Positions 2,851-23,621 of a DNA stretch of 64,000 nucleotides are shown here, piece by piece (position 1 is the first letter of the stretch; every line of letters starts with the position of its first letter). The stretch is from contig CAWCYI010000006.1 in assembly GCA_963799845.1 (NCBI GenBank), forward strand, positions 800,001-864,000, given 5' to 3'. This stretch comes from an uncultured Nitrososphaerota archaeon. GTDB lineage: Archaea > Thermoproteota > Nitrososphaeria > Nitrososphaerales > CADDZS01. The notes beneath the pieces were generated by a model. That model saw nothing but the letters and a program-made list of their open reading frames with translations, did no database searches and was not told the origin of the DNA. A program made the translations under genes and the position numbers.

Positions 2851-2994
2851 ATGGAAAATAGTTCATCGGTTCATCCAGCCGTTTGCAACCGACATAACAT
2901 AAGACTGCGGACTGACGAGCACGGTAAAATGTCCTGTCCAGTTTGTGAACAGATTAGTACCCAGCAGGCTGCTCGGAGAGGCAGACGCCGGTAG
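2851..2994 (+). CDS. 47-aa zinc-knuckle microprotein (CxxH-x13-CPxC) with Arg-rich tail; not in the ORF track
   Basis: Manual translation MENSSSVHPAVCNRHNIRLRTDEHGKMSCPVCEQISTQQAARRGRRR*; clear paralog at 23472-23621. Confidence 0.85.
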   Translation: MENSSSVHPAVCNRHNIRLRTDEHGKMSCPVCEQISTQQAARRGRRR

Positions 2995-3065
2995 GTTTTG
3001 CTGAATATCTTCCTCCATAGCCCTTTCGAAATGGAGGATAGACAAGTATTTCGTATCTTATTCGC

Positions 3066-3530
3066 TCAGACCTGTTCGACCATCGAATCAGAGTCTGATT
3101 GTGAATCGCCGGAATCCGATTCTTCCTGTTCTTCAGAACTTTCGTCGCCGGATTCTTCGACAATCTCGCCTCCACCTTCGACCAAGGAGGCGTTTGCAAA
3201 TCTTGCACTAACTCTCTCGATCTTTATCTTGACCTTGGCCTCGGCATCTGCTTTTGCCCCGGGTACGAAAATAACAAATCCAGACACCTTGGCAACGCCC
3301 TCGCCCCTCCGGGAGAGCTCGCCGATCGTAACTGTGTACTCTTTTCCAACTTCCACAGGTGCGTCAGCTGGTGCAAACCGGCTCCCCCCGCTACCGCCGC
3401 CACCTCCGCCGTAAGATGGTCTGTATCCGCCGTAACCGCCGCTTCGTCTGCCGCGTCCATCCCTGCTACCTCCGCTTCCGGAGCTCGTCCGTCGTCCTCG
3501 GTTCTTCCCGCGATTGTCGCTATATCCCAT
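3066..3530 (-). CDS. Single TRAM-domain RNA-binding protein with RG/GG-rich N-terminus and acidic tail
   Basis: APVEVGKEYTVTIGELSRRGEGVAKVSGFVIFVPGAK...KIKIERVSARFANA. Confidence 0.92.
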   Translation of the reverse strand: MGYSDNRGKNRGRRTSSGSGGSRDGRGRRSGGYGGYRPSYGGGGGGSGGSRFAPADAPVEVGKEYTVTIGELSRRGEGVAKVSGFVIFVPGAKADAEAKVKIKIERVSARFANASLVEGGGEIVEESGDESSEEQEESDSGDSQSDSDSMVEQV

Positions 3531-3556
3531 GATACATTCCGTTGCCCTGATAACTT

Positions 3557-5221
3557 CTAGTAGTCCATTCCGCCCATGCCGCCAGGTCCTCCCGGCGGAG
3601 GTCCCGGAGGAGCTTTCATCTTTCCAGAGGCAATCATGTCATCAACACGCAGGATCATCTCGGCGGCTTCCGAGGCGGCCCTAATAATCTGCTCCTTTAC
3701 GGCCGCCGGTTCGATTACATTGTCTCCCCACATGTCTGAGACTTTGCCCGTCCTGACATTGATTCCAAACCACTTTTTGCCCTGACCGTGCTTTGCCCTC
3801 ATGTCAACTTCAGTATCGATTGGGTCCATGCCGGCGTTGTGAGCGAGTGTTTGAGGAATTGACTCGAGCGCGTCTGCAAATTTTGCGACCGCCAGTTGTT
3901 CTCTCCCAGAAAGTTTATTGGACCATTCCCTCAGCTTACCGGCGATCTCCTGCTCTGGAGCTCCCCCACCCGCAACGATGAGTGGTTTTTCCATGACATC
4001 CTTCACGACCATTATTGCATCGTGCATGGATCGCTCGACCTCATCCACGACCCTTTGAGAGCCGCCGCGGATTAGTATGGTAACCGCCTTTGGATTCTTG
4101 GACCCCTCGACGAAGACCCATTTATCCTGCTCCACTTTTCTTTCCTCCACTAGCTGAGCTCGACCAAGGTCCTTTTCAGTCAAATCATCAAGGTTGCTGA
4201 CAATTCTTCCGCCGGTAGCCTTTGCCAACTTTGTCAGATCAGACTCCTTCGCTCTCCTTACTGCCAGGATCTTTTTCTTAGAAAGATAATGCTGTGCGAT
4301 GTCATCTATCCCTTTTTGGCATATGAGGACGTTAGCGCCGGCAGACGCAATCTTGTCAACCATGGCAGAAAGCATCGAATTTTCTTCTTCCAGAAATCTT
4401 TTCATTTGGGATGGATCGTTGATTCTGATCTCAGCGGAGAATTCCGTCTTTTCAATTTCCAAAGGAGAATTCACAAGAGCAATCTTTGCGTCTTCAATTC
4501 TCTTAGGCATCCCGGGATGAACGACTTCCTTGTCTAAAACGATTCCTTTGATCAGCCGTGTATCACTTGTAGATCCCCCAGGTTTTTTCTCGACCTTTAC
4601 ATTATCAATGTCCACTTTGAATTTGCCTTCATCCGTCTTGTCGGCTATTTGGAGCAGGGCAGTTACCACAATCTCGCCAAGCTCAGCGCTGTCATTCGAT
4701 ACAAGCTTTGATTGCATGCTTGTCTCAGCAACTTGTTTGAGGGCAACTTTGTCCCCCGGTTTAACGCTGACTGCAATCTCATTCAGAAATTCGATAGCCT
4801 TGTCCGAGGCCTTGGAGTACCCGTCAACAATAATCGTTGGATGGACTCCCTTGTCGATCAAATCCTCAGCCTGCTCTAAAAGAGCACCAGCAAAGACGAC
4901 TGCAGAAGTAGTGCCATCGCCAACCTCGTTATCGGTAGTTTTCGAAATTTCGATTATCATTTTGGCTGCCGGGTGCTGAACGTCAATCTCTTTTAGAATG
5001 GTCGCGCCGTCGTTGGTTATCGTAACGTCCCCCATGCTGTCAACCAGCATCTTGTCCATACCCCTGGGACCTAAACTGGTCTTTACAATCTCTGCGATCA
5101 ACTTGGCTGCAAAGATGTTGTTTCGCTGGGCGTCATTGCCCTTGGTCTGAGAAGACCCTTCCTTCAGAATGAGAACCTGTTGACCTGTCGAGGTCGTCGC
5201 GGGAATCGCTGTTGCTGACAT
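3557..5221 (-). CDS. ths: Thermosome (group II chaperonin) subunit
   Basis: [33 protein letters not shown] and a GGM-rich tail. Confidence 0.98.
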
Positions 5222-5408
5222 TTTATTCTATTCTCTGAACTTGACCTTCGGTTGCGCTCATAAGTCTAGCGTTCAGATAGGTTACTGGCTCAACCCGATA
5301 GTATTCTTCGTTCAGCGGGTAATCTCGGCCCCAGGAGGCGAAGACGGATTTAGAGTGTCAAGATGTTGATGCGAGGATTAAATATGCCCCTAGATTATTG
5401 AATTTCAG

Positions 5409-5807
5409 ATGTCCTTCAAGGATGAGGTCAACGATGCTATCATGCATGTGGTTAGTCTAAGACAAATAATCCAGTTGAGCCGGCCCCGTCGCTTAGGAGA
5501 AAAATTCGACGCTGAGAAGGAGAAAAAGAAGGCGGAGACCATTGCCGATTCGAAAAAGAAACTTGAAGATATACCTGCTGAAAAGGTCGAGAATGTCATC
5601 GCGCTTGCCTCACAAAGCACTCCTATAGAAAGTGATGAGATTGTTCACAAGCTGGAGAGGTTGGAATTCCTGCTTGAAGATATGAGCAAAGGCAAAGACA
5701 AAAGGAGCAACTTGTCGTTCTTGATTGAATCTCTCAGAGTAAATACGATCATTTACAGCACGCTGTCCTCGGTAAAGAGTCTTCAGAAAATCATCACCGG
5801 TACCTAA
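5409..5807 (+). CDS. Hypothetical helical protein
   Basis: 132-aa ATG ORF filling the gap, preceded by a TATA-like attaaata (~5377). Confidence 0.65.
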   Translation: MSFKDEVNDAIMHVVSLRQIIQLSRPRRLGEKFDAEKEKKKAETIADSKKKLEDIPAEKVENVIALASQSTPIESDEIVHKLERLEFLLEDMSKGKDKRSNLSFLIESLRVNTIIYSTLSSVKSLQKIITGT

Positions 5808-5854
5808 CAGTCCGCTGCTCCAATCGCATTCGATGCGGCAGTTTCTACATCAAC

Positions 5855-7088
5855 TTCAACTTCTCCCGCCTGAAGGCAGGGAGATTGTGACTGTCGAAAA
5901 AAGAGGCGCTACAATAGGCTTGTTGAATCGAGCCCTCGAAGCTATGTTTCTTGCAGCGATATAATCTGCCATAGCCTCCAAACCGCAGGAGATACAACGG
6001 AAGATATCTCTTGACGGTCTATTCTTTTTGTCTATGAAGTGGCATTCTGGACATTCTCTTGAAGTGTTTCTGGGGTCCACGATTGCGATAGGAACCCCTT
6101 CGCGTTTTGCTTTGTACTCGAGGAAGAAACGCAGTTCTCCAAATGCCCACTTTGAGTGCCTGTCTCGATGTGAGTGCCTAACTGTTGCCCTCGACCGAAG
6201 GCCCTTCAAGTCTTCGAGGGCTATTCGTCGATTTGTGCCTTTGGCTTTCAAGACCATCCGTTTTGCAATCACGTGGTTCGTATCCCTCTTGAAGCGGCGT
6301 TCCCTGCCTGAAATAATCTTGAGCTTCCTCTGCGCAGATCTATGCGTCGATGTTGCCTTGGCTCTTTGGAGGGAAGCTCTCAGCTTGCTGTATCTTTGCC
6401 TAGTTTGCTCCACCTGTTTTCCTGAAAAGACCTCACCATCGCTATCCGTTGCCAGATTGTGTACGCCCAGATCCACGCCGAGGGTTTCCTTTGCTTGGTA
6501 CTGCGATGCTTCAGGAGCTTCCACGACGGCAATCAGGTAGAATACGCGATTTCGATAAATTAGGTCGGCCTGCCCACGCAATCCAGAGAGTGCCCTTGCC
6601 CTTTGATACTCGCCTACTCTAGTTTTGAGTTTGATTCTCCCGTTCAGGGTCAGCAGGGATACGAAGTCTATTCCCTTCCATGAGAGATTGCGCTGGTCGT
6701 ACTGGATTGCACCGATCATTCTGAAGCGAAGCTGTCTTGACCTGTCTCGTTTGTAGGCCTCGACTGCCTTGCTTATCACTCGGACTGTAAACTGAGCACT
6801 GAGGTGGAAGCATTCACGAATTTCAGGGTAGAGTAGCTTTTGGAGTGCGTACTTGTTTGCGAGTTTTAACTCAAATGCTTTTTCAGCGATGAAATTTGCA
6901 GCCGAGTTGTAGCGCCTCATAGTCTCCAGCAATAGCTCTTTCTCTTGCCTGTTGGTTTCGAGTCTTATCTGGAGAGACTGAAGCACTGACTCCCACGTTC
7001 CCAAAATCAATTATTAAAAGCCTATAGCGTGTTCTATAGCGCAATTCCTCCCCGACCTAAAGTTCGGGGCTTCCGTTGCGCGGTTATT
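5855..7088 (-). mobile_element. IS200/IS605-family element carrying tnpB only (IS1341-type), both ends intact
   Basis: On the - strand the left end is TTCAC|aataaccgcgcaacG-GAAG-CCCCGAACTTTAGGTCGGGG (hairpin) and the right end is CAAT-CTCCCTGCCTTCAGGCGGGAG-aagt-TGAA|. Both guide/cleavage tetranucleotide pairs (GAAG/TCAC, CAAT/TGAA) follow the IS608 pairing rule. Confidence 0.9.
5856..7010 (-). CDS. tnpB: RNA-guided endonuclease TnpB
   Basis: RuvC motifs GVDLG, IALEDL and ADYIAARNI; zinc finger CPEC...CISC. Confidence 0.95.
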   Translation of the reverse strand: MILGTWESVLQSLQIRLETNRQEKELLLETMRRYNSAANFIAEKAFELKLANKYALQKLLYPEIRECFHLSAQFTVRVISKAVEAYKRDRSRQLRFRMIGAIQYDQRNLSWKGIDFVSLLTLNGRIKLKTRVGEYQRARALSGLRGQADLIYRNRVFYLIAVVEAPEASQYQAKETLGVDLGVHNLATDSDGEVFSGKQVEQTRQRYSKLRASLQRAKATSTHRSAQRKLKIISGRERRFKRDTNHVIAKRMVLKAKGTNRRIALEDLKGLRSRATVRHSHRDRHSKWAFGELRFFLEYKAKREGVPIAIVDPRNTSRECPECHFIDKKNRPSRDIFRCISCGLEAMADYIAARNIASRARFNKPIVAPLFSTVTISLPSGGRS

Positions 7089-7134
7089 GTGAAACCATTA
7101 AGCAGATATGGCGGTTTGACGCAAGAGCTCCTGT

Positions 7135-7560
7135 ATGTCAGAAGTTAAGCAAACGAAGGAGGAGTACAATTCACTTCTCGCACGGTTGAGGGCCGCTAGA
7201 CCCGAAGGTATTTCGCGTTCTGAAGATCGTCTAAGGCTTCCTGATCCGAGGACGATGGTCTCCGGGAAGAAGACTTACTGGATCAATTTCATCGATTTTC
7301 CAAATATGCTTAGACGAGATCCGAACGAGTTTCTCAATTACTTCAGGAGCCAGCTTGCAATTAATGCTTCCATTGAAAACGGCAGGGCAATATTCATGGG
7401 TCGGCCGGACAAACACTCTTTCTCCGCTCTCTTGCAGAGGTACTTGAAAGAGCGGGTTATATGTCCGGTATGCAACAGCCCGGATACCCACCTCGAGAAA
7501 GAAAAACAGCTCACGACCATAGTCTGCGAAGCTTGCGGCGCCCGTTCGGCGGCCAAATAA
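7135..7560 (+). CDS. eif2b: Translation initiation factor aIF2 beta subunit
   Basis: EYNSLLAR, KTYWINF, LRRDP and zinc ribbon CPVCNSPDT...CEACGA. Confidence 0.93.
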   Translation: MSEVKQTKEEYNSLLARLRAARPEGISRSEDRLRLPDPRTMVSGKKTYWINFIDFPNMLRRDPNEFLNYFRSQLAINASIENGRAIFMGRPDKHSFSALLQRYLKERVICPVCNSPDTHLEKEKQLTTIVCEACGARSAAK

Positions 7561-7604
7561 GACACGTCTAAGCATAGGATTTTATCCTAGTGATCTTGCC
7601 TTAG

Positions 7605-7850
7605 TTGGCCATGGTAGCCAAAGCATTCGTTCTCATAAATGCCGAACTCGGATCCGAGATGGACACTGTTCACTCGATAAAAAGTATTCCGAACGTGATG
7701 GAGGCATATCTGGTTTATGGAACGTATGATATCATCGTGAAGGTGGAAGGAGAATCGCTGGATAAAGTCAAGGATACGATAACTCACAAGTTACGAACGC
7801 TTCCAAATGTGAGATCGACTCTGTCGATGGTAGTCGTAGAGGAACAGTGA
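7605..7850 (+). CDS. Stand-alone Lrp/AsnC ligand-binding (RAM) domain protein
   Basis: KAFVLINAELG...VYGTYDIIVKVE...VRSTLSM. Confidence 0.9.
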   Translation: MAMVAKAFVLINAELGSEMDTVHSIKSIPNVMEAYLVYGTYDIIVKVEGESLDKVKDTITHKLRTLPNVRSTLSMVVVEEQ

Positions 7851-7900
7851 ACACGCATCACAGGGTAGTTTTCTACCTTGTGATTAGATTCTTCGGCACT

Positions 7901-8155
7901 TTAGTTGAAGTACAACGGATTCGAGAGTCTAGAGATTCTCGATCGTGGAGGAGGGACGCCAAGCCTTGCGCTAGTTCTTCTTCTCGCAGCAGTTCCACTG
8001 CATCTCTCTGAGCAGTACTTCCTTCTTCCCACGAGTCCTGACATATTGTCCATGGGTGTACCGCAGAATTCACAGTATTGCTGAACCACTTCTTGTTTTG
8101 TCTTTCTTTGAGGCATCTTGTAAATGCAGTGAGGGATTATCTTCCGAGCATACAT
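7901..8155 (-). CDS. Small putative zinc-binding protein (CxxC...YCSxxC)
   Basis: CEFCG...RRKYCSERC; true start probably the MPQRK ATG. Confidence 0.6.
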   Translation of the reverse strand: MYARKIIPHCIYKMPQRKTKQEVVQQYCEFCGTPMDNMSGLVGRRKYCSERCSGTAARRRTSARLGVPPPRSRISRLSNPLYFN

Positions 8156-8232
8156 AGGATTGAGGGTACAAACTCGTTAATTGGAAGGTCTATTTTTCTT
8201 GAAAATGGCAAAGCGGCTCCTCTCATGAGAGG

Positions 8233-8628
8233 TTAATTAACCTCCTGGGCTCTTGGCGAGAAAAAGTGCTTGAAGTACCAGAGAAGATAAGAAGCCCACA
8301 GCCACAATACCGTTAGAGTCCCGTAAAGAGCCAGAAAATCGATCGGCGCATAAAGAATGTACCCGACGACCCCGTGGCTGTAGAATTTCAATGGAAGCAG
8401 ATTCGCCTCGTTGAATTGATTTACAACTCGTTGAAGATAGAACGACTGGACCGTGTCGATTCCAGTCAAAAAAGCGGAGATCATTCCCAGAAGGATCATA
8501 TTGTGGCGATTAATCGTTTCCGAAAACCATGCATTCGCAACCGCGACCTTGCCGACTCCTAACTGAGTTTTCAGCATCCTTTTTCCGCCAGGCGCAGAAA
8601 CAACAGCCTCATCGGAGGAATTCGTCAT
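8233..8628 (-). CDS. Hypothetical membrane protein
   Basis: Two to three hydrophobic segments with D...NEAN motif. Confidence 0.65.
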   Translation of the reverse strand: MTNSSDEAVVSAPGGKRMLKTQLGVGKVAVANAWFSETINRHNMILLGMISAFLTGIDTVQSFYLQRVVNQFNEANLLPLKFYSHGVVGYILYAPIDFLALYGTLTVLWLWASYLLWYFKHFFSPRAQEVN

Positions 8629-8935
8629 GGATCGCTGATACGGAGTACCGCTCCACTTGTTTTTAAGTTTGATATGATGAAGGCCGATGTACTTTCCGGA
8701 TTCCGCGTTGCCCTAAAAGATAGCGAGATCCGATATCTCGACGCATATACTTCCCCTGATCATTGTTTTTTCTTCGGCCGTTAGCGTCGGGCTATATTTT
8801 CACCCGCGGATTACGCATGGCGATAAGGTCAAAGAGTAGGACACCCTTTAACGATCAAAGTCCAGAAGGCTGATTTGCATTGGCAAATCAAAGAGTGGCT
8901 ATCCGAAGACAATCGAAAAAAACGAGAGTGTGAAA

Positions 8936-9271
8936 CTAATCGGTAATCGAATAACCTCTGACACGAATCAAAGCTATCAAGTCTTCTAGCCCCGTGTAGT
9001 TCCAGTTTGATAGTTTGAACCGATTTTTCAACTCCTCAATTATCGTGGTTTCGATGATTCTTGATCCATTTTTGAAAATATCTCTGATTGCGTTGCAGAA
9101 AAGATCTGGCCGCTCGATGAGATCTTCTTTCTTTAGTTTAGTTTCTAGGCTGAATTTCCAGTAGACCACTATCGCCACTGCCTGTCCAAACTTAGAAAAC
9201 GCTCTGTCGATGCAGATCAATATTTCCGAATTCAAGTCTAGAATTTCAGCTTGTTCAGCCACGGATTTCAC
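8936..9271 (-). CDS. DUF3227/NitrOD5-like small protein typical of Nitrososphaerota
   Basis: IDRAFSKFG.AV..VVYW.F...LKKEDL.ERPDLF..AIRDIF..GSRIIE pattern. Confidence 0.7.
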   Translation of the reverse strand: MKSVAEQAEILDLNSEILICIDRAFSKFGQAVAIVVYWKFSLETKLKKEDLIERPDLFCNAIRDIFKNGSRIIETTIIEELKNRFKLSNWNYTGLEDLIALIRVRGYSITD

Positions 9272-9381
9272 CTAAAGTCATTGAGCCATTCAGTCAGAAA
9301 CATTAACCGGAATATATCCAAATTGGATGTTTTCCATACATATCGAAGTACGATACAAATACTCAAAATTAACTGATTCGA

Positions 9382-9564
9382 TTATTCGCGAGAATCTGAA
9401 AGGTAAACCGTGTAACTCTCGTTACAATTAGAGCATTTGATCGTTTTTTCCTCGAAGTCGTCGGAACCAGGTTTCTTCAAAGTCGTCTTGAGGGAACCCG
9501 ACGATGGCATGCTGACTTCATTGGGAACCATACATTCGGGACATGAAACTAGGAGATCTTCCAT
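9382..9564 (-). CDS. Small zinc-ribbon protein
   Basis: CPEC ... KCSNCN in a 60-aa ATG ORF. Confidence 0.7.
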   Translation of the reverse strand: MEDLLVSCPECMVPNEVSMPSSGSLKTTLKKPGSDDFEEKTIKCSNCNESYTVYLSDSRE

Positions 9565-9710
9565 GAATCCGCCCTGGGTTATACAGCGTAATTAAACGCT
9601 TGGCCCTCCCGGTTGATCAAATTCCTTGTTTCGATTCTAACTTTGAAACTATATCGGGAATTCACAACCCTTTTTCTAGGAACTCTCATGATTGAACCAG
9701 CGACGATTTT

Positions 9711-12700
9711 TTGTTGTTTCCTAGCCGCGACAGTCGAAATTCGAACATGCTTGTCGGAATTTCGCTTGCGTTCTTGTTCTTGTTAGTCAGTTTGCCGTTT
9801 CAAAACGCGGCAATTAACACGCGTAGCCAAGGCTCCTCGATCAGTAATTCTAAGGGAGTACAGGCGCAAAGAGGAGCAATTTTCGCCGCCCCCAAGAATT
9901 TCCGCGCGACGGAGGAAGCGTCGAGCTCGGCGTCTCAGCTTTCAAGTGTGCCCCCGGTTTCTTGGGATGAACAGCTGGCAATGACAATCTCGCAAGATTC
10001 ACCTTCGCTCTCATACAATGTAACCGCGGTGCAACAGTCAGATGTCGACGGTTATGGACCGGCGTACCTTCTGAGCGGTCTCACAGACCAAGGATATTGG
10101 TATCAGGTGGGGATAGCGTGGAACTGGCCGATAAATGGAGGAGGCTATTTGCCAGGATTCCAATTTCTTTACGAAGCATGGAACCCCTCTGGATCTTCTG
10201 TTTATCCAGCTGACGGCGGAGGGGGGTTGCAAAATTACTCTGCTAAAATCAATGCGGGCGACATCGTCCTGCTGAATCTGTATTTTTCAAACAATCAAGT
10301 TATGATGTACTCTAAGGATTGGAATACTAGCGCGATAGCTTCCGCCAACTATACTGCAGCGGGCGGCGCGGTCTTTGTGGGTCTTCCGGAGCAGTGTAAT
10401 TCGAACTGCTATTTTTCAGGGCTTATGACCGAACAGTATCATGCTTCTGAATATCTTGGCACGGAAGCTAAGGTGACCTACAGCGATCCCTACCTTGGAC
10501 TGGATGCTGCGACGATGTGGATCGATGAATACAATGTAAACACAAATCAAACTTTGTTCAGTCTTTCATCTGCAGATATTTCTTACACCGATCCCAATCA
10601 ATTACAGTACTTCTCACTGAACGGAACTTCGGAAGCTTCAAACGCCTACGAATTCACCACTGGGTCAAGCAGTCTAATTGGAATAACCCTCAGCTATTCA
10701 ATAGTTGGTGGAGGTTCGGGATACCAAGCTCCAATACTCGACTATACTTCAAACGGGACTCCCCTAAATGCAACACTGACAACTTCACCGACAGAATATT
10801 TCATGGACCAAGGGACTAGTTGGAATGCCACGAGCCTGCTGATCGGGTCCTCGTCGAACCAAAGATGGATAACAAATCAGCCCGCTGGCAATGTTTCGGT
10901 TACCCAGACGTTAGTTCTGGCATACACGCATGAATACGTGTTATTTTTCGGATCTAGCCAAAATGGAACTGGAACCGTTCAACCATCGGGATCAGGATGG
11001 TACGAGGCGGGAATTGCTCTGAGCATTTCTGCTATGCCACAGAGCCCATATCTTTTCTCAAACTGGTCGTCAAACTCCAGTAAAATCGTATTTGCAAATG
11101 CTGAATCGGCCAATACAACCACGACCATCAGTGGCCCGGGAAGCATAACCGCCAAGTTCACTCTGTTAACTATTTCACTTTCTTCGAATTCGGGATCTTT
11201 GACGGAAGGATCGAGCGTATCCACTAACGCAAAAATTATCGGGATCAACATCTCCGTCACCCTTTCCGTTTCAGGACTTCCCAGCGAGGCCACAGTTACT
11301 TGGAGCAAGAATCCTATCACGGACGATCTTGCGGGAGTGACTGACATGCTGAACATCTCAACCTCATTCTCAAGTCCACCCGGAATTTACAACGTAACCG
11401 TGACCGCTTCCTCAACTAACGGGAGCGATTCGACCCAGTTCACGCTCAAGATCAATGCGGCCGATGCTCTGACGGTCAGCTTTTCCACCAGCGACAATAG
11501 TTCTCCCAACCCCCCGACCATAAGCTACGTATACGATGGTACCGACTACCAGCTCTCGCTGACAAATTCTTCCCAGGTGATCTACGTTGACAACAGTTCT
11601 AGCTGGGAGGTAACGTCCGTTTTGAGTAACTCGTCTTCCACACAAAGGTGGATATTGAACGGAACTAATCAACGCATTTCAAACGCCCCGTCCACTATCA
11701 ATCTCGTCTACTATCATCAGTACTCGGTTGGTTTCACATTTCGTACCTTCGACAACAGTAGCTCTTCAGAATTTCCAACCGTGTCCATTGTCTCATCGGG
11801 AGTAATTTCAAGCGTATACGCAAACGGCACCGGGATATGGGCCGATTCCGGAACGGAATACAGCTTTGCTTCCTCGATTACGAAGTCCCCTACGGAGAGG
11901 TGGGAGCTGGCAGGAAACCAGACCGGCACCGTCACCCAAGAGGCGATGGTTAGCGCAATATATTATCATCAATATTTTGTCAATTCCTCGTTTGGACTGT
12001 TGGAACGAGCTATCGTCCCGACTGCGCCCATGCTGAGTTTTGTAAGTAACGGAACAACAAATTCTATCAGATTGGGACAGAATTTGAACGCGTATTGGAT
12101 TGATTCAGGCTCAACGTGGTCGGCCTCTGCGAATCTTAGTGGAACTTCAGTTGAAAGATTTTTGGGATCAAATACGTCCGGGATCACGAATTCCCAGAGC
12201 ACGATTCATCCTGAATACACGCCGCAGTTTTACGTCGTAATCAGGCAGAACTCCCCAATTGCAGGCTCGACCTCTCTGCAGCAGGGCTGGTATACTTCCA
12301 ACTCCTCTCTTTCAGTTTCGGCAAAGGCTAACCAGGGATGGAAGTTCGCAATGTGGAATGGCGCTGGAAGTCAAACCAATTCGAGTTCTACAACTGTTCT
12401 TGTTACCGAACCCATGAATATCACCGCTGAATTTTATGCTGGGTTGTCTCTGAGCGCTGGAGCTAACGGACATGTGACTTACACTTATGGATCGAACTCT
12501 GGTACAATATCGGCGGGATCAGCAGAAATACTCTATGTAGCCCCGGGAACTAATATCTCTCTGAGCGCTTCATCCGATTCGCCATTTTACTCGGAGGGTT
12601 CATGGAACACTGGTAACGACACGGCGGGATCATCCTCTCCGTTCGTTTTGACGGTGTCTTCTCCGATGACTATAGGAGCATCCTTTGGTCTGAACGTGAC

Positions 12701-12821: not shown

Positions 12822-12960
12822 GTGGATTTGACTCTGTAGCCAAAACCATTTCTAGAATTCTTCAGAGTTGTACTCAAAAAAAGTGCACTTATCCTGCTCA
12901 GTGAACGTTTGCCGCAACCAAAGTCTTAAGGCGAGCAGCTGAGATCTCCCTGAGCGCATA

Positions 12961-14314: not shown

Positions 14315-14318
14315 AATT

Positions 14319-14858: not shown

Positions 14859-15016
14859 CCGTGCCTTGGGCCAGCTTATACAACGAGCGATTCTCCTTCT
14901 TTACGCCAAAACTTTACTCAGAGTTCATAATTTTCTTTATGAAATACTGACCGAAAAAATAGGGAATTGCGATTTTCGAGCGAGCTTACGCTCTACTCTA
15001 CGGTGGCGAATGAATA

Positions 15017-15832
15017 ATGAACCTCTTTTGGAGGCCCAAGGAGCAGATATTCTACCGTAGTTGGATCGGCGACGCCGGTCACAGTGTCGCAGTTGATGCT
15101 CAGATAGAAGGGACGGGATACTCAGCTGCCTTCAAAGTTTTCGGGAATTTTTGCGAGCTTTGGCTATTTCCGGTCAGCGTGAAAGTTCGGCGCAAGGGCG
15201 ATACTTTCTCAGACAGTGTGACACGGCGCGCCCTAATTCTAAATCTCCCGAAAAGAGACGTGGACATTTCAAAGCAAATTCGTCACGAGCTCTTGCAGGC
15301 AGGTGAAATCCATGAAGATCGAGTCGATTTCAAATGGGTGAGATATTCCGTGAAGGTAAAAAGGATCAGCGCGGACGACGAACTCAGAATCCTTCAGTGG
15401 CAAAAGTCATCGTCCCTCGTTCCGGAGAGACAAATAGTGCGAAGAAGGGGAACTGCTATCGTAGATTCTTCGCTCGGCATACTTCTTGTTTCGAGCAAAG
15501 GTCATCTGTACCTGCTGCCTGGAGGTGGTGCCAAGAAAGATGAAAGCAGGATGGACGCGGCGCTCCGCGGGTTGAAAGATGAGACCGGACTCACGGCGAA
15601 GAGCTGTCGGTATCTATTTTCATTCGATGATCCCGAAGACAAGAAACTCAGGAATCTACACAAAGTCTTTTTGGTCGAGACCGATGGAACCCCTAAAAAC
15701 AATCTGCAGGAGTCGAGACGCTCAGAGTTCTGGCACGAGGGTTCGAAGTTGAACATAAGCAACTCGACAAGTTTGATCATTGAAAGGTATATGCGGGAAT
15801 TCAAGCCCTCCTATGCAGAAAATAGATCCTGA
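15017..15832 (+). CDS. Unknown N-terminal domain fused to a NUDIX domain with a degenerate Nudix box
   Basis: LLPGGGAKKDESRMDAALRGLKDETGL compared with the canonical GX5EX7REUXEEXGU. Confidence 0.8.
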   Translation: MNLFWRPKEQIFYRSWIGDAGHSVAVDAQIEGTGYSAAFKVFGNFCELWLFPVSVKVRRKGDTFSDSVTRRALILNLPKRDVDISKQIRHELLQAGEIHEDRVDFKWVRYSVKVKRISADDELRILQWQKSSSLVPERQIVRRRGTAIVDSSLGILLVSSKGHLYLLPGGGAKKDESRMDAALRGLKDETGLTAKSCRYLFSFDDPEDKKLRNLHKVFLVETDGTPKNNLQESRRSEFWHEGSKLNISNSTSLIIERYMREFKPSYAENRS

Positions 15833-16075
15833 AATCATGGACAGAATGCTGGGTCGCTTTGAGAGGGCTAGGAGGTTAAAATGCTAGTTTCGTATTTTAG
15901 GGCATCCAGAATTTTGAAATGTCTGTTTCTGGATATTGTTTGTCTTTTTCAGATGTAATTGACAAAGTTATAGATCCCCAATCCATGAGGGATTTGGAGA
16001 CCTTAGTCCAAATTCACAAACTATTTTGTAACTTTCGCAGACTCTTGATTGGGTAGCGATTTCTGAACTTAATAG

Positions 16076-19000
16076 GTGCCTTCACAGGAGCTGATTTTCT
16101 TCCACTCATTTAGTTTATCGAGGAGATTCATTATGGTATTCGCAGTAGGTTTAATTCTTGCGACAAGCACGATGGGCACATTTGCGTCTCGTTCGAGCGA
16201 GTGCCCGGCGAATCATTGTGGTATAGTGAATCATCCGACCGAAATTTCTGGTGATTCGAAAAGTACCGAGACTTACTCCGGACCTTCATTTTCTCCCAAT
16301 AATTACAGCAATCAATCCTTTCATGCGCACGCATCGATAATGCCTTCCAACCTCAGATCGAATCCCGGAAACCTTGCACCTCCACCACCCGCCGTAATCG
16401 ACGAACAGATGGGAATTACTTTCGGACAGAATTTCGCCGCTCTTTCTTACAACGTGACAGCGGTTCAGCAAAATGATAGCGATGGTTATGGCCCCGCATA
16501 CCTCCTGAACGGGCTTTCCAATCAGGGATACTGGTACCAGGTTGGAATTTCATGGGATTGGCCTTTTCCAAGTGGTGGCTACACGAGCGGATTTTATTTC
16601 AACTATGAGGTTTTCAACTCAACAGGGCAGTCGGTATTTCCAGCGGGTGGAAGTGGCGGGGTAACTGCTTTTACAGGACTGGTGAATCAGGGCGACATTG
16701 TACTGCTAAACTTGTACATCTCTGGAGGTGTCGTTTTCATGTCGGCTCGAGATTTGAACACCAGTGTTGGTGCAACGCAAGACTACACTGCCGAGGGTGC
16801 TTCGACATTCATCGGCATGTCCTCTCCTGAAAACAGCTTCGGCTTTTTCACAGGTCTAATGACGGAGCAGTACCACGCATCGCCTTACTACGGCCCCTTC
16901 TCAGAAGTTACCTACAGCGATTTCTCCACTGCTATTGTATCCGCGACAATGTGGATCGACGAGTGGGATCCGAGCTCAAACCAGACAGTGTTTTCCGGGG
17001 CTTCTTCGCAGCTACAGGTACACAAATCCGAATTTGTTCCAGTTTTATTCCTTGCACGACGCTGTAGAAGGCTCGAACGCATTTGAGTTCATCACTGGAG
17101 CGACAGGTCTGATACCAATCACATTGAGCTATAGCGTAGAATCCGGAGGAACAGGATACTACCCGCCGCTACTGACGTATTATTCAAACCAGGTGAAACA
17201 CATTGTCACGCTGAATACGCAGCCGACGACATATTACATGGACAACGGTTCGCAGTGGTCGTCCGCCAATGAACTTGCAGGGTCTACCATGACGGAGAGA
17301 TGGATCGCGACCCAAGCGACTAACGGAATCGCAAATTACAGTCAGACGATCAATTTAGGTTACATCAATCAGTACAACGTGACGATCGGAGATTCTCCTG
17401 CAAACGGCGGAACAGTAAACCCGTCCGGAGCAAATTGGTTCAACGCGTATTCCAAAGTCCAGCTCTCAGCTTCCTCCTCCAATCCTTTCGTCTTTGCGGA
17501 ATGGAGTTCGTCCACACCAAACATCACATTCGACGACAGTAAAGCTATCTCAACTCAGGCGAGTATTTCCGGGCCTGGTAATATAGAGGCAGATTTTAAC
17601 AAGGTGGCGATTTATCTTTCTGCCGAATCAGGGAGCGTTACGCAAGGAGCATCGACTTCCTTCGTTGCCACGGTAGTGGGAATCAGTGGATCGGCTTACA
17701 TTACGATTTCTGGTCTGCCGGAGGGAGCACGATCAAGCTTCGGAGCTAATCCGGTTCCCCTGGAGTTTATGGGCACGCCAGACAACGTGAGTCTATCATT
17801 TTCGATGTCAACTCCTCCAGGCTTCTACAATATCACCCTGACCGCGAATGCGAGCGACGCAATCGACACTGCGAATTACGAGTTGCACGTCCAGAAGGCG
17901 GTTGTTCTCACAGTAGAATTTTCTACGAGCGACGGCACTTACGGTTCCTCCCCTTCATTTAACTATACTTACAATGGCGCAGACGAATCAATATCCCTCA
18001 CACAAACACCCCAAATGGTTTACGCCGATAATGGTTCGAAATGGAGCGTTGAAAACGAATTCAATGAATCCAATCCCGGAGAGAGATGGATAACAAATCA
18101 GACTACCGACGGGATCGTCAATAATTCGCAGACAATCGATTTTAGCTTCTACCACCAATATCAAGTTACATTTGGTTATAGCGTGGTTGGCGATACTACT
18201 CCTGATACCGCACCTGTAGTGAACTACTCTTCGTTTGGCACCACCGCGAACATTGGATTGAATAGTACCGGCTCAACCTTATGGGTAGATTCTCTTTCAA
18301 CTTACTCTTATACACCATCAATTTTTAGCAATGAATCACTTCTCGCGCGGTGGGCTGCTGGCTCAAACCAGACCGGCGAGATCACGAATTCTACTTCCGT
18401 AGTAGCTCAGTACTACTTGCAATATCTTGTCATGGCGGGATATGGAGTCCTCGGCGGAGGATCTGGATTTTCGGCACCCAACGCTACTTTCCAGAACCTC
18501 GGTTCAAACGTTAATACCACGCTGCAATCGCAGCCAAAAGCCTACTGGGTTGATACCAACTCGACATGGTCCTATCCGAAAATACTATCCGGATCAACCA
18601 CGAAAGAAAGGTGGATATCGACGAATTCTACGGTGTCAGTTAGCGTGGACTCTCCTCTTTCGATTTCTCTGAATTATCAAAATCAGTACTTTGTCTCAGT
18701 TAGCTCTATTTCTCCATCAGCCGGTCAGGTAGATCCACGGAGCGGTTGGTTTAACTCTGGTGAAACTATTGCGTTTTCAGCGTCTGCTAACTCTGGCTGG
18801 AAGTTTACCGGTTGGACAAGCAGCGGCACGGTCGCCTCCAACGGGACGGTAGTGGTCGACAGCCCAATAAATGAAACTGCGCAATTCGACGCCGGCCTGG
18901 TGCTCAGTGCTTCTCCAGGAGGTCAACTGATTTACAACGTCGGATCGGCTCAAGGGACAATAAGCGGCGGTTCATCACAAACAATGTACGTCGTCCCCGG

Positions 19001-19277
19001 CACCATGGTGTTCCTAAGCGCTTCCCCGTCCTCGACTCTGTATTCGTTCGGCAAATGGAGTATTGGAAGCGATACCGCTTCCTCAAGCGCATCCTATTCG
19101 GTCTCGGTATCAACTCCAACTAGCATAACAGCCTATTTTGGTCCCAACTACCTGATTTTTGTTTTATTGGGAATAGTAACGTTCGTAGGGGTCGCCTTCG
19201 CGATGTTTTTCATCGCCAAAAGAAGAAAACCAAAAGTAGACAGTCCAGTGGAAAGAGAAGAAACAGACGATTTCTAG
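16076..19277 (+). CDS. Large surface glycoprotein, paralog of 9711-12821; frameshift near 17015
   Basis: Shares SYNVTAVQQ.D.DGYGPAYLL.GL..QGYWYQVGI.W.WP, GLMTEQYHAS and ATMWIDE with the paralog. Deleting one base after CAGCTA restores collinearity (SSQLRYTNPN vs SADISYTDPN). C-terminal TM followed by KRRK. Confidence 0.88.
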
Positions 19278-19345
19278 TTAGACTCGGATCCACCCTTCCG
19301 GAAACTATTTCGAGACGAATTTGAAAATGAGCTGCAGACCGGTTT

Positions 19346-20716
19346 TTGGAATCCTTGGAACATCGTGAAAAATCCAGTGATCTTTGCATAAGCGTATTCG
19401 GCCTCGGATTTGTAGGCAGCTCAATTGCAGCGGCCTGGCTTCGGGCCGGCGCGATCGTAGAGGGGTTTGATGTGTCAGCGGGACGAATTGAGGACCTTAA
19501 GAATCCCAAGACGCTTGGATTCGAGGAAGCGGTCGAGGAGGCTTTTGATGAAGGTCTGAAAAGGGGGAAGCTACGACTCTATACCACGGACTTAGTTTCA
19601 AAGACCAGATCCAGTGTAAAGCTTGTCTGTGTGCCTGTCTACCTCGGCAAAGACAAACGCGCGGATCTTTCATCTCTGAAAAGTGCGACCGCTACTGTCG
19701 GCTCGACTCTCAAGAGGGGTGATGCCGTGATCATCTGTCCATCGGTTCCGCCTGGCACTACGCGCAAAGTTGTTGTCCCGATTCTTGAGAAACAGAGCGG
19801 ACTTGCCGCTGGAAAAGATTTTGATCTCATCTACAGCCCGGAGAGGATACTTGTCGGAAGAGCTGTTGAAGATATCGAGAAACATTATCCCGCAGTTATA
19901 TCCGGGATCGACGAGAAGAGCCTCAACAGAGCGGAATCCATCTTCCGAATAGTTGCCCAGAAGGGAGTTCTCAAAATGCCTAACATTGAGAGCGCCGAGT
20001 TTGAGAAATTGGCAGAGGGTGTCTACCGAGACGTGAATATTTCGCTCGCTAACGAGCTCGCGATGGTTTGTGACGAACTTGGGGTCGATTTCTGGGCCGT
20101 CCGCGAAGCCGCAAATTCGCAGCCCTTCTCTCAGATTCACGTCCCGGGACTGGGTGTTGGCGGTGCCTGCATTCCAGTTTATCCGTGGTTTGTTGTGCAG
20201 TCCGTTGAAAATACCGATACGAGATTGATCGAAGACGGAAGAGAAATCAACGATTCGATGGTGGATTATCTCGTTGAGTCTCTCAAGAAGAATTTTCATT
20301 TGAATGCAAAATCGAAAATTGCGATACTTGGTCTGGCGTTTCGTGGAGGCGTCGCAGATTCGCGACTCTCAGTCACGTATCGATTGGTCGAAAGTTTGCG
20401 AAAAAGCGGCTTTGACCAGCTTAAGATTCATGATCCGCTCATATCGAAGGATTCGAAGGTCGGAGACATCTTGACATCCAATTTGGATGAAGCACTTTCC
20501 CTTGCTGATGTAGCAGTAATTGCTACCGATCACAAAATGTACAAAGACTACGACTGGAAATCGTACAAACGTGAGTCGAAATTGAAGATCATAGATGCGA
20601 AAGGAATCCTCAGGGACAAGCCGCTTTCATCCTCTGTCGAGGTTTACGGCCTGGGTTACGGATTAAACAATCCAAAGATGGTTGAAAGGCCGTCAAAAGA
20701 TGAGTCTGAAAACTAG
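19346..20716 (+). CDS. Nucleotide-sugar dehydrogenase (UDP-ManNAc/UDP-GlcNAc dehydrogenase, WecC-like)
   Basis: GLGFVG, PSVPPGTTR, YSPER, AEFEKLAEGVYRDVNI, GVGGACIP, ILGLAFR. Confidence 0.93.
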   Translation: MESLEHREKSSDLCISVFGLGFVGSSIAAAWLRAGAIVEGFDVSAGRIEDLKNPKTLGFEEAVEEAFDEGLKRGKLRLYTTDLVSKTRSSVKLVCVPVYLGKDKRADLSSLKSATATVGSTLKRGDAVIICPSVPPGTTRKVVVPILEKQSGLAAGKDFDLIYSPERILVGRAVEDIEKHYPAVISGIDEKSLNRAESIFRIVAQKGVLKMPNIESAEFEKLAEGVYRDVNISLANELAMVCDELGVDFWAVREAANSQPFSQIHVPGLGVGGACIPVYPWFVVQSVENTDTRLIEDGREINDSMVDYLVESLKKNFHLNAKSKIAILGLAFRGGVADSRLSVTYRLVESLRKSGFDQLKIHDPLISKDSKVGDILTSNLDEALSLADVAVIATDHKMYKDYDWKSYKRESKLKIIDAKGILRDKPLSSSVEVYGLGYGLNNPKMVERPSKDESEN

Positions 20717-20785
20717 AGTATTCAGGAAAAATAACATAACTCATTCGCTATGTGGAAAGAGGAAGTTCCTTCGAACGGATTCGAG

Positions 20786-21112
20786 TTAATGTTTCGTTTC
20801 AACTTTATCATCTGACCGTTCAAGCAAGATGGTGAAAAAAAATCTCTGATGGTCTTGCAATTGCTCCTCTTGAAACATGGATTCAGTTACCATAAAGTTC
20901 TCATTTACAAGAGTGCCTTCTTTGGTCACGAACTTTGCACGTTCAAGCCGTCCCCTTCTTATCGGGCCCACACGGTGAAGAATCTCCAGTTTGTCTACTT
21001 CATTGTCAACATGGCCCTTAATGCAATAGCCTGTACCCACCTGTTCAATATCGACTACACCCAATCGAGGAATTATGAAATCTCCGATCAAAGCACTGAA
21101 GTTTGAAAGCAC
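20786..21112 (-). CDS. Hypothetical protein
   Basis: 108-aa ORF with no recognised motif. Confidence 0.5.
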   Translation of the reverse strand: MLSNFSALIGDFIIPRLGVVDIEQVGTGYCIKGHVDNEVDKLEILHRVGPIRRGRLERAKFVTKEGTLVNENFMVTESMFQEEQLQDHQRFFFTILLERSDDKVETKH

Positions 21113-21274
21113 GGTGGAACGAGATCTTCAAAGACGGAAGATTAAGCATTTTGACGGTTGCTTATTTTCGCAAATGACCTCAGAAATTTATTTCCAGCAC
21201 TGGTCGCTATTTGTCCTGAAGAATTGGCCCGAGGGTCACTACTATCCGAGCAGCAAAAAATCTGTGTTTGCCAG

Positions 21275-22270
21275 TTATACCATTAATCCTGTAACCTTGA
21301 GCGTAAAGTTAATGCTCGTTGTCTTACCGTTGCTCGTTGATGTGCCCACGAAATTCAAGTAAGTAACGATAGGCACGCTTGCTCCGGAAGGCGTCCCACT
21401 TGACATTGCGAATTTCGTGAGAGTTTCACTTCCACCGCAGTATGTGAATGAAACTGGATACGAACTGGCAACGTAATTCGTCACAGTTATCGAGACCGTC
21501 CCAATTGTCACGTCCGACGTTCCAGTGGACTGGAATTGAGAACTGCTGAATACTTGAAGCGATTGAGCATTCTCGATTTCTATAATGAATCCAGAAAATA
21601 GGCCGATTACTTCGTCGTACCCGAATGAAACCGGGATGCTCGTTCCATTTACTTCTATGAACAAGACTGTGCCGTTCGTTGCTATCGTAGCCGTTGTAGT
21701 TTCCGAAATGTTGATCGTCTTGTAGGTCAGGTTAACCACGATCTGCGAAGAACTCGAAGAGACTACGTTGTAAGATGCAGTGTAATTGATGGGAGTCGGG
21801 CCATTAGTCCCATTGTAGATGCCCGAGTAGGATATCGTCATTGCTGAGTAGGACGTAAGCAGAGGTATGAGGTTTGAAAGCTCGTTAGTAGTATTGGAAC
21901 AGGTCACGGTTTCCCCCGTACCAGTGACAGTGTTTGACGAGATTCCTGAGGATGAATTAGTTGTCGTAGATATGGCAGTTGATGTGGAAGTTGAGCTGCT
22001 GATTGTAGTTGAAACAATAGATGGACTCGAACTTGTTGAAGGAGTCGACGAAGTGGTCGTGCTCGAGGCAGACAGAGATGAAGAACCAGCTGAAGTAACC
22101 GAACTAGCCGGACTAGAGGAAGTTGAGGAAGCCGAAGATGAGGAAGTACCAGTTGTAGACGACTTGCTTGAGAGGGCAACATATGCAGTCGCCCCTGCCA
22201 CAGCAATTATCACGATCAAGACGATGGCTATTACCGCCGGTGCAATGGCGCTTCTGGTACGTATTATCAA
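21275..22270 (-). CDS. Secreted/membrane-anchored protein with Ser/Thr-rich linker
   Basis: N-terminal RSA/IAP class-III-like signal and hydrophobic helix, ~70-aa S/T tract, beta-rich C-terminal domain. Confidence 0.85.
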   Translation of the reverse strand: MIIRTRSAIAPAVIAIVLIVIIAVAGATAYVALSSKSSTTGTSSSSASSTSSSPASSVTSAGSSSLSASSTTTSSTPSTSSSPSIVSTTISSSTSTSTAISTTTNSSSGISSNTVTGTGETVTCSNTTNELSNLIPLLTSYSAMTISYSGIYNGTNGPTPINYTASYNVVSSSSSQIVVNLTYKTINISETTTATIATNGTVLFIEVNGTSIPVSFGYDEVIGLFSGFIIEIENAQSLQVFSSSQFQSTGTSDVTIGTVSITVTNYVASSYPVSFTYCGGSETLTKFAMSSGTPSGASVPIVTYLNFVGTSTSNGKTTSINFTLKVTGLMV

Positions 22271-22527
22271 GCCAAGTCTCGGGTGCTTTCGGAAAATCGG
22301 AATTTAATTTAATTCATAGTAGCATTCGGAACATTTCGATCTAGTTTGAACAATTTGAGAAACTTACAGAGAAGGTCAGTCAATTAGGCTTAGTTGAAAG
22401 TGATAATCGGGCGCGAACATTTCGGTGATTCGCAAGAAAGGGGAATTACTCAGGCCAGGAATCAATTTCAATAACGCCCTAATTTTCCTAGATTGGAATT
22501 TTGGCTCTCTACGGGTATGAGCGTCCC

Positions 22528-22893
22528 TTAGTCAGAATCTAGAACTGGGCGTAGAGTGTTTGCGATCTTAATGATTGCGAGCGCATTAAATCTCAACGTG
22601 TTCGCGCCCAGAGGTGTCAGACCGTATACTTTCTTTCTTTTACGATGTGCACCGTTCGCGTCCTGCGAAATGAATTTCGATCTTTCCAGATTTCTAAGAT
22701 GCGGGTAGAGGGTTCCAAAACTGACCATAATCCCAAACTCTGTTGACAATTCTTTCCTTAGCTCGTATCCCCCCATCGGTCTGGACCAAAGCTGAGAAAG
22801 AAGCAGGATGTCAAGTAGGTCTGCCACTTTGTTTTGGTCACGAGAAGTTGAACCAGGAGTCTGACCCTTCGGATCATCCTGCAGCAGTGTCAA
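22528..22893 (-). CDS. PadR-family transcriptional regulator
   Basis: RPMGGYEL...SFGTLYPHLRNLE...RKKVYGLTPLG. Confidence 0.92.
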   Translation of the reverse strand: MTLLQDDPKGQTPGSTSRDQNKVADLLDILLLSQLWSRPMGGYELRKELSTEFGIMVSFGTLYPHLRNLERSKFISQDANGAHRKRKKVYGLTPLGANTLRFNALAIIKIANTLRPVLDSD

Positions 22894-23033
22894 ATCTGTC
22901 TTGAATTAGCAAACTCGAATTAAGATAGTTGTGAAACAATGATTCTGATCAGAGCTTCTTGTCCGCTTCTATAGCGGGATCCGATATACTAAACGCTTGC
23001 GTACTATTGCACTGAAGAGCCGGGTTTGCTTCC

Positions 23034-23339
23034 CTAGTTTTTAGGCTCGTTCTCGGTCGGACCGACGATGGATGCCAACCCAAATCTGGGGCCCAAACTA
23101 TCTATCCTGATCCTCACCTTGTCTCCGATCTTCGAGCCTCTAACGAACACGATAAATCCTTTGACTTTCGCTAAGCCGTCACCCTTTTTCGAAAGTTCGA
23201 GAATTTCGACACTGTATTCCTTGCCAACTTCAATTGGAGGGGGCGGAGTGAATCCGGGACCGTTGCTATACCTAGAATCGTTGGACCGCGGCCTCCCGCC
23301 GTGCCTTTCTTCGTTTCCTCTACGATCTCGCCGACTCAA
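23034..23339 (-). CDS. Single TRAM-domain RNA-binding protein
   Basis: PPIEVGKEYSVEILELSKKGDGLAKVKGFIVFVRGSKIGDKVRIRI. Confidence 0.92.
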   Translation of the reverse strand: MSRRDRRGNEERHGGRPRSNDSRYSNGPGFTPPPPIEVGKEYSVEILELSKKGDGLAKVKGFIVFVRGSKIGDKVRIRIDSLGPRFGLASIVGPTENEPKN

Positions 23340-23471
23340 TTTCTCAAAAAAACCTTAGAGCCAGCTTTCCGATTGCCCCTTTAAGTGATTGTCCCGCTTT
23401 TGCGAGGCTGCCGGTACCTGGGCAGTATTTCGAAGGACAATGCCTAATAGCGTGAACGACTGCTTTTATCT

Positions 23472-23621
23472 GTGAGCTCTATCAATTCTTTAGGCCAAGC
23501 CGAGGTTTGCACAAAACACGGCATCAGGTTCCGAGCCGACGAACACGGGAATTTGCGTTGCCCGGTCTGTGAACAGATTTCCCTTCAACAGTCCTTGCGC
23601 AGAGGACGCCGAAGGCGTTAG
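23472..23621 (+). CDS. 49-aa zinc-knuckle microprotein (CxxH-x13-CPxC) with Arg-rich tail; not in the ORF track
   Basis: GTG start; MSSINSLGQAEVCTKHGIRFRADEHGNLRCPVCEQISLQQSLRRGRRRR*; paralog of 2851-2994. Start codon uncertain. Confidence 0.82.
   Translation: MSSINSLGQAEVCTKHGIRFRADEHGNLRCPVCEQISLQQSLRRGRRRR

Follow-up and report, generated by a model that had tools for sequence, protein, structure and literature searches.

Small zinc-finger proteins of a new archaeal family, encoded at several loci upstream of a TFB gene in Nitrososphaerales

Archaea possess numerous small zinc-finger proteins, of which few have an assigned role and which gene callers routinely miss. The question of what such proteins do is raised by a 64-kb window of DNA from an uncultured Nitrososphaerota archaeon (all 64,000 nucleotides of positions 800,001 to 864,000 of contig CAWCYI010000006.1, assembly GCA_963799845.1), which contains two short open reading frames (ORFs) for basic microproteins, here called mpA and mpB, one of them ending just ahead of a gene for the general transcription factor TFB. 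Are these ORFs genes, to which family do their products (mp) belong, and with which of their neighbours, if any, do they act?

2851-2994, + strand: mpA, ATG start, 47 amino acids (aa), pI 10.6; zinc-finger microprotein with C12-x2-H15-x13-C29-P-V-C32 and an Arg-rich tail
23472-23621, + strand: mpB, GTG start, 49 aa, pI 11.1; basic zinc-finger microprotein

A preliminary description, drawn from the letters of the window, had placed two paralogous microprotein genes at these coordinates, below the cut-off of the ORF listing, and had read their protein conservation over diverged DNA as a sign of purifying selection, to be checked by dN/dS. All of this is borne out. With 47 and 49 aa, the two fall short of the 60-aa default of the listing; the peptides quoted for them match 37-38-residue cores of the two proteins, with the first 10-11 residues left out. 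In a BLASTP comparison, mpA and mpB share 20 of 30 residues (E 4e-16). When each was searched by tblastn against the whole window, the two found one another with 70.3% identity across 37 aa and E 2e-16, whereas the next match had an E value of 0.068 or worse, indicating that their likeness goes beyond chance; a third copy is absent from the window. The DNA of the two genes is identical at 81 of 141 aligned positions (57%), with differences by codon position of 0.30/0.30/0.68, and the proportion of synonymous differences (pS) amounts to 0.88, compared to 0.29 for nonsynonymous ones (pN).

The same picture emerges from all seven genomic copies that we could compare, namely mpA, mpB and five further loci, L001-L005, all of which are related. 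Their mean pairwise differences by codon position are 0.37/0.33/0.64, third positions being about twice as divergent as first and second ones. In 21 of 21 pairs pN lies below pS (0.11-0.46 versus 0.58-1.0, Nei-Gojobori), with synonymous differences at or near saturation, and the three pairs that permit a dS estimate yield an omega of 0.14-0.15. The reading frame is unbroken in all seven copies. mpA and mpB are real genes, paralogs under purifying selection.

The five related loci stem from a scan of species-representative genomes with one strict peptide pattern around CPVC; of its 16 pattern matches, seven were confirmed by tblastn, corresponding to five loci in four metagenome-assembled genomes of Nitrososphaerales, one of which bears two mp copies, as the window does. 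An exhaustive phmmer search of 1.84 billion representative proteins, with mpB as a single query sequence and E <=0.001, returned seven matches, three of them genuine. P0007 is a family member of 50 aa, while in P0002 (146 aa) and P0003 (92 aa) the match is confined to the C-terminal 41-45 residues, so that these two are evidently over-extended ORF calls. The other four (P0001, P0004, P0005 and P0006) are long repeat proteins that match by several weak stretches and were dropped. Word-index searches with the family alignment added P0008 at lengths near that of the family and found P0002 and P0003 again at longer lengths; a word-index protein search with mpA as the lone query returned no match, the query itself included. 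In two very large collections, the family is represented by four predicted proteins, two of them over-extended, and the sole name given to any of them is 'hypothetical protein'. The family is rare or seldom called and so far confined to one Nitrososphaerales group, a range that is a lower bound, as it derives from one strict-pattern genome scan and one single-sequence exhaustive search. As a practical lesson, the annotation of these genomes should gain a model for the mp ORF. A tree of the proteins supports only two groups (94/94), one comprising L004, L005, P0007 and P0008, the other mpA, mpB, L001-L003 and the two trimmed calls; because five of the eight inner branches are open beyond this division, the order of duplications cannot be derived.

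What kind of protein is conserved here? In an alignment of ten sequences, the ligand pattern C-x2-H-x13/14-C-P-V-C occurs in every row, and C13, H16, C30, P31, V32, C33, Q39 and R47 (mpB numbering) are invariant, with I18, R19, L20 and R44 nearly so; the residue after CPVC is E, D or V, and never G. All 11 sequences are 43-50 aa long, with a pI of 8.7-11.1 and 8-12 Arg and Lys residues; RRGRRRR, RRGGRR and RRRSRRR are examples of their tails. Among the motifs listed in the preliminary description, CxxH-x13-CPVC is confirmed, whereas DEHG, EQIS.QQ and RRGRRR, though common to the two window copies, vary across the family. AlphaFold2 models mpB from a nine-row alignment with a mean pLDDT of 76.7 (87-89 for residues 11-40), predicting short strands at the CxxH knuckle and a beta-hairpin, followed by a helix at residues 31-44 that begins at CPVC; both termini are of low confidence. 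For mpA, the same topology is predicted (pLDDT 77.9, helix 30-43). This predicted order of knuckle, hairpin and helix, with the final two ligands on the helix, is that of a treble-clef-like finger, in which, we infer, the C-x2-H knuckle and the CPVC at the helix start would jointly hold one metal ion, and the Arg-rich tail after the helix is probably disordered. The same sequence of elements is found in the treble-clef fingers of GATA, nuclear-receptor and B-box/RING proteins, a likeness of topology only, with no significant match; GATA-type fingers employ a basic tail when they bind DNA. Judged by its predicted anatomy, mp is a basic one-domain zinc finger of about 5-6 kDa that is probably suited to nucleic-acid binding.

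In agreement with its initial portrayal as unassigned, the family is in no curated collection: neither mpA nor mpB reaches the cutoff of any Pfam or NCBIfam model. Of the Pfam models, the zinc ribbons of PaaD and TFIIB come closest, with 13-14 bits, far below threshold. mpA matches the TFIIB ribbon PF08271 with 13.2 bits (E 0.069; cutoff 29) and the YnfU family zinc-binding protein model NF038384 with 17.2 bits (E 0.0027; cutoff 36); mpB matches neither. Among ribosomal zinc proteins and RNA polymerase subunits, no Pfam or NCBIfam match was obtained for either protein up to E 1, and a sequence search of the PDB gave nothing below E 0.04. Language-model look-alikes in the ESM Atlas are generic small zinc ribbons, namely YhfH, NinF, HVO_0758, S27 and L37ae, with scores of at most 0.91; the HVO_0758 family appears among those of mpA with a score of 0.85, a lead only, and there is no match to the Pfam HVO_0758 model. 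Nor did we find a published account of the family in the literature on TRAM, zinc-finger and small proteins of Nitrososphaera, TRAM domains of ammonia-oxidizing archaea and the TFB paralogs of Thaumarchaeota.

The closest fit is to a class rather than a family. Tarasov et al. 2008 (PMC2253796) describe small 'CPxCG-related' zinc-finger proteins as a large archaeal class with many unannotated members, which have fewer than 100 residues, a motif that may take the form CPxCx, and a second ligand pair with 2-3 residues in between, located 7-40 residues away. With their 43-50 aa, the CPVC present in ten of ten sequences and the C-x2-H pair 13-14 residues before it, the mp proteins conform to this description, and they are likewise basic and often missed by annotation. 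The class is defined by motif and not by homology, however, and mp has no detectable kinship to curated families. By its sequence, mp is a new family within this class of CPxC-type proteins, which a motif defines. The Haloferax volcanii C(P)XCG micro-proteins HVO_0758 and HVO_2753 (PMC11241148) are also one-domain proteins of less than 70 aa with predicted tetrahedral metal sites, but carry a pair of C(P)XCG motifs, in contrast to the single CPVC without Gly, the CxxH and the Arg-rich tail of mp, and belong to another phylum.

The genomic surroundings of the mp genes provide hints at a function. We compared them in a synteny sample of the seven copies that comprises 100,159 bases in all. In the window, mpB is followed by a complete TFB paralog, whose product has a zinc ribbon (PF08271) and two cyclin-like repeats (PF00382, two stretches).

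23661-24626, + strand: tfb, starting 39 nt after the mpB stop; Pfam TFIIB E 1.8e-42, Zn_Ribbon_TF E 6.7e-11

A tfb gene lies downstream on the same strand at four of the seven copies, at distances of 39 nt (mpB), 29 nt (L002), 28 nt (L003) and 208 nt (L005). These four are all the full-length tfb genes of the entire sample, and they are orthologous, with 61-75% identity. Their arrangement suggests that mpB and tfb are probably co-transcribed. At L003, a GAGGT precedes the ATG of tfb by about 10 nt. At L004, a 17-residue relic of a TFB C-terminus (1454-1504, + strand, in a frame open from 1280 to 1513) is located right after a TRAM gene, 430 nt before mp, and is 76% identical to residues 296-312 of the window TFB (tblastn E 0.006), which suggests the loss or truncation of a tfb gene at this locus. 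The wider gap at L005 contains a 49-codon ORF (5134-5283, + strand) with the C4 zinc-ribbon pattern CPGCG-x13-CEGC, which shares its frame with tfb (5338-6228), one TGA standing between it and the open tfb frame; in Pfam, it matches a reverse gyrase zinc finger weakly (E 0.0026, below cutoff). This ORF may encode a second microprotein, or else be what is left of an N-terminal extension of that TFB after decay or interruption.

The mp genes also appear to have promoters of their own.

2814-2829, + strand: promoter-like box GGATAATGAAATATAG, with an A/T-rich 3' part that ends 21 nt before the mpA ATG
23435-23450, + strand: promoter-like box GGACAATGCCTAATAG, separated from the mpB GTG by 21 nt

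The distance between box and start codon is equal for mpA and mpB. The pattern GGAYAATGNNNWATAG (GGAYAATGnnnWATAG), which was built from these two sites, has two matches in the window against 0.15 expected, both at the mp genes. At L001, L002 and L003, where the GTG start of mpB is kept, GATAGTGCCTTATAT precedes this conserved codon at the same distance of 21 nt; conservation of the residues at these loci sets in after the GTG (SSNS...) and does not extend to those encoded in frame ahead of it. When an A/T-rich box is centred about 25-27 nt upstream of a start codon, it has the look of an archaeal TATA box in front of a leaderless mRNA. The spacing suggests that every mp gene is probably preceded by a TATA-like box of its own, at about 21-28 nt from the start codon, and has a leaderless mRNA; data on transcription start sites or leaderless transcripts of Nitrososphaera were not found in the literature. 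The box is absent at the TRAM, ths and tfb genes of the window, and the idea of a shared regulon motif was rejected, as it occurs at the two mp genes only. A scan for sigma-70-type promoters and terminators was set aside, the host being an archaeon.

Based on these observations, it seems possible, and we propose it tentatively, that mp is an accessory or regulatory factor that acts with the linked TFB in transcription initiation or its control. In the commonest arrangement, mp and one particular TFB paralog would share a two-gene unit, with mp as the leaderless first cistron and the TFB gene as the second, so that a small nucleic-acid binder would be made together with the linked TFB and might then act in initiation or its control, while the nearby TRAM genes would be members of an ancestral neighbourhood or regulon and not obligate partners. 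A possible analogue is Brz of Halobacterium salinarum, according to PMC2253796 a small zinc-finger protein whose gene is located directly upstream of a neighbour gene that requires Brz for its transcription. Like brz, mp stands directly upstream of its neighbour and in the same orientation, this neighbour being a gene of the transcription system; unlike it, mp is followed by the gene of a general transcription factor and not by a regulated structural gene, and a regulatory effect of mp is putative. A more far-reaching version strikes us as quite improbable: here mp, encoded on the same leaderless transcript, would serve a single alternative TFB as its own zinc-finger cofactor and, by binding the promoter, the nascent RNA or the complex of TFB with RNA polymerase, redirect initiation, and would form with the TRAM chaperones a lineage-specific stress-response unit of soil Nitrososphaerales.

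If mp acts with TFB, it would offer a handle on how archaea with many TFBs allot them to promoter sets, and, should it truly be a TFB cofactor, no small-protein partner of an archaeal general transcription factor would have been described before it; if TRAM is its partner instead, it would be an added component of the poorly known archaeal RNA-chaperone system. In either case, the family is near-invisible in public protein sets, yet under selection and placed before one TFB paralog. Its position before a general transcription factor and its recurrent proximity to TRAM genes have not been described, as far as the literature searched reaches.

Several points weigh against a role with TFB. Three of the seven copies (mpA, L001 and L004) have no intact adjacent tfb, with none in view at mpA and L001, and mp can for this reason not depend strictly on a tfb operon; moreover, the sequence of the spacer between mp and tfb is not conserved. 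The promoters were assigned from position and A/T content only, and leaderless mRNAs do not usually begin with GTG. An origin of mp from the TFB zinc ribbon is unsupported, hhalign giving a probability of 4.1% over 9 columns against the linked TFBs. The spacing of the ligand pairs around the beta-hairpin is similar in mp and in the TFIIB/TFB ribbon PF08271, next to whose gene mp is encoded, but the second half of mp is predicted to be a helix and not a third strand, and the linked TFB has a complete ribbon of its own. As to the fold, none of 84 PDB and none of 441 BFVD matches in Foldseek has an E value <=0.001 (best 1.1 and 0.37, respectively), and the PDB list is led by B-box, RING, GATA and nuclear-receptor fingers with TM scores of 0.34-0.38; because there is no significant neighbour, the fold says no more than 'small zinc finger'. 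Metal binding is not settled by AlphaFold2 either, as is pointed out in PMC11241148, where five of 14 Haloferax zinc-finger micro-proteins of this sort are reported to be zinc-free. A predicted complex of the window TFB (four-row alignment) with mpB (nine-row alignment) scored 0.00, compared to a mark of 0.32, but with an uncertain partner fold and without controls this counts neither way. Finally, proximity to TRAM genes is as frequent as that to tfb, at four of seven copies, and agrees no less well with a role directed at RNA.

This last point leads to the other recurrent neighbours. The preliminary description had correctly reported tfb 39 nt after mpB, as well as a TRAM gene next to each window copy and a thermosome gene next to one of these.

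3066-3530, - strand: TRAM-A, 154 aa, convergent with mpA, 71 nt apart; Pfam TRAM E 3.1e-13, 49.8 bits (cutoff 21)
23034-23339, - strand: TRAM-B, 101 aa, divergent from mpB, 132 nt apart; Pfam TRAM E 6.8e-12, 45.5 bits
3557-5221, - strand: thermosome subunit, adjoining TRAM-A; Pfam Cpn60_TCP1 E 4.5e-193

From these neighbours it had deduced a recurrent stress or RNA-regulation module of TRAM and microprotein linked to the chaperonin and to alternative TFB expression, of which the recurrence stands and the module does not. A TRAM gene is found within 1.2 kb of four of the seven copies, but each time in another arrangement: convergent at 71 nt (mpA), divergent at 132 nt (mpB), same-strand and 572 nt upstream (L004), and convergent beyond tfb at 1185 nt (L005). 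Since all four arrangements differ, there is no fixed two-gene unit of TRAM and mp. No TRAM gene was found within 5 kb on either side of L003, nor within 1.2 kb upstream and 5 kb downstream of L001; L002, with an upstream extent of 318 nt, was left out of this judgement. The thermosome link did not hold up, being present at one of the seven copies and at none of the five related loci. The tfb link is tighter than the TRAM link. As both deep branches of the mp tree hold tfb-linked as well as TRAM-linked copies, the TRAM/mp/tfb neighbourhood is probably ancestral and was repeatedly rearranged.

As the chief alternative to a role with TFB, it is nevertheless conceivable, if doubtful, that mp binds RNA by its zinc knuckle and, along the lines of the preliminary description, joins the TRAM chaperones in post-transcriptional or cold- and stress-related RNA handling, its Arg tail touching RNA or the acidic tail of TRAM-A. 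All four TRAM genes in the sample fall within 1.5 kb of an mp copy, although such stretches make up 20.5% of its bases; the resulting P of about 0.002 assumes an independence that related loci violate, and overstates independence to that extent. The TRAM link is present in both deep branches of the family, and the TRAM proteins have Gly/Arg-rich N-termini, so that both partners resemble RNA binders. In methanogens, stand-alone TRAM proteins act as RNA chaperones and cold-shock proteins (PMC5572242). On the other hand, orientation and distance differ in four of four cases, none of them operon-like, two copies (L003 and L001) are without a nearby TRAM, the acidic C-terminal tail occurs in TRAM-A alone, and the TRAM proteins remain below the NCBIfam PyTRAM equivalog cutoff of 85 bits (TRAM-A 67.5, TRAM-B 76).

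One can also ask whether the position next to tfb and TRAM is merely inherited gene order, with mp being a free-standing basic zinc protein of general role, at work in the ribosome, for example, or in the nucleoid or some other machinery that handles nucleic acids. In favour of this, the small CPxC-type class counts many orphans among its members, besides ribosomal proteins and subunits of RNA polymerase (PMC2253796), each copy has a promoter-like box of its own, the L001 copy is accompanied by neither tfb nor TRAM, and the language-model look-alikes are generic ribbons. Yet no ribosomal or RNA polymerase family matches even at E 1, occurrence in few Nitrososphaerales genomes together with duplication is unlike a core component, and synteny with the same TFB ortholog persists in spite of saturated synonymous sites, for which reasons we consider a general role unlikely.

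A regulatory upstream ORF or leader peptide, the translation of which controls tfb while the peptide itself is functionless, is very improbable: the ORF is indeed short, and in three genomes a mere 28-39 nt separate its end from tfb, but it is the amino-acid sequence itself that is conserved, with invariant Cys and His ligands and pN far below pS, the paralogs mpA, L001 and L004 persist apart from an intact tfb, and the predicted fold is confident at residues 11-40. That the ORFs are chance frames or decayed remnants is scarcely credible: gene callers do nearly always pass them over, finding four proteins of which two are over-extended, but the mpA/mpB match at E 2e-16 and a frame intact in seven of seven copies, with saturated synonymous and constrained replacement change, speak against it.

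A structured RNA in place of a gene was rejected as well, as a scan with Rfam at gathering thresholds found no RNA family anywhere in the window and the hairpin between mpA and TRAM-A is unremarkable. This inverted repeat (3012-3040, CCTCCAT ... ATGGAGG) separates the two convergent genes and has an ordinary folding energy (z -1.55; 13 of 200 shuffles fold no worse).

Two further genes flank the mp genes in the window.

2230-2805, + strand: HEAT_PBS repeat protein, upstream of mpA with a 45-nt gap; Pfam HEAT_2 E 7.6e-35
22528-22893, - strand: PadR-family regulator, beyond TRAM-B; Pfam PadR E 9.1e-13

PadR genes occur within 3.5 kb of three of the seven mp copies. The HEAT_PBS protein has two His-Glu motifs, and its PDB matches are designed alphaRep proteins and human deoxyhypusine hydroxylase; residues 39-154 match residues 22-136 of 4d4z (E 8.4e-22), at about half the length of that enzyme. 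From its sequence, a protein resembling deoxyhypusine hydroxylase may be considered, as a lead only.

The CPVC motif recurs in the window in the C-terminal zinc ribbon of aIF2-beta (7135-7560, + strand), which explains a weak tblastn match of mpA to this gene (E 0.83). The NCBIfam aIF2-beta model PRK12336 also matches both TRAM proteins via its TRAM-like C-terminal part (profile positions 143-201 of 203), indicating that a fused architecture of zinc ribbon followed by TRAM exists elsewhere.

Elsewhere in the window, several genes appear damaged. A PolX-like ORF (43-1086, + strand) comprises the thumb and palm of polymerase beta and a helix-hairpin-helix motif, but its PHP domain ends early, covering profile positions 1-51 of 164; it is overlapped in another frame by an ORF at 956-1642 (+ strand) that has no Pfam match at E 0.1, and the PolX gene at 43-1642 could be frameshifted or decaying. 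The molybdopterin-binding large subunit of an aldehyde oxidase/xanthine dehydrogenase-type enzyme is split into two ORFs (48988-49497 and 49646-51313, both - strand), between which the MoCoBD_2 domain is divided, and is possibly a pseudogene. ORFs for PPK2 (33363-33911) and an alpha-galactosidase (35465-36358) look truncated. Mobile-element genes, all on the - strand, are located at 5856-7010, 43769-44866, 44870-46216 and 46379-47397; these elements include two of TnpB/IS605 OrfB type with a Cas12f1-like TNB domain, one DDE_Tnp_1 transposase, and a pair of ORFs, DDE_3 and helix-turn-helix, apparently one transposase spread over two frames. Finally, a VapB-like antitoxin is paired with a PIN-domain protein at 28246-28900 (+ strand), and a separate PIN_2 gene is found at 41537-41959 (+ strand).

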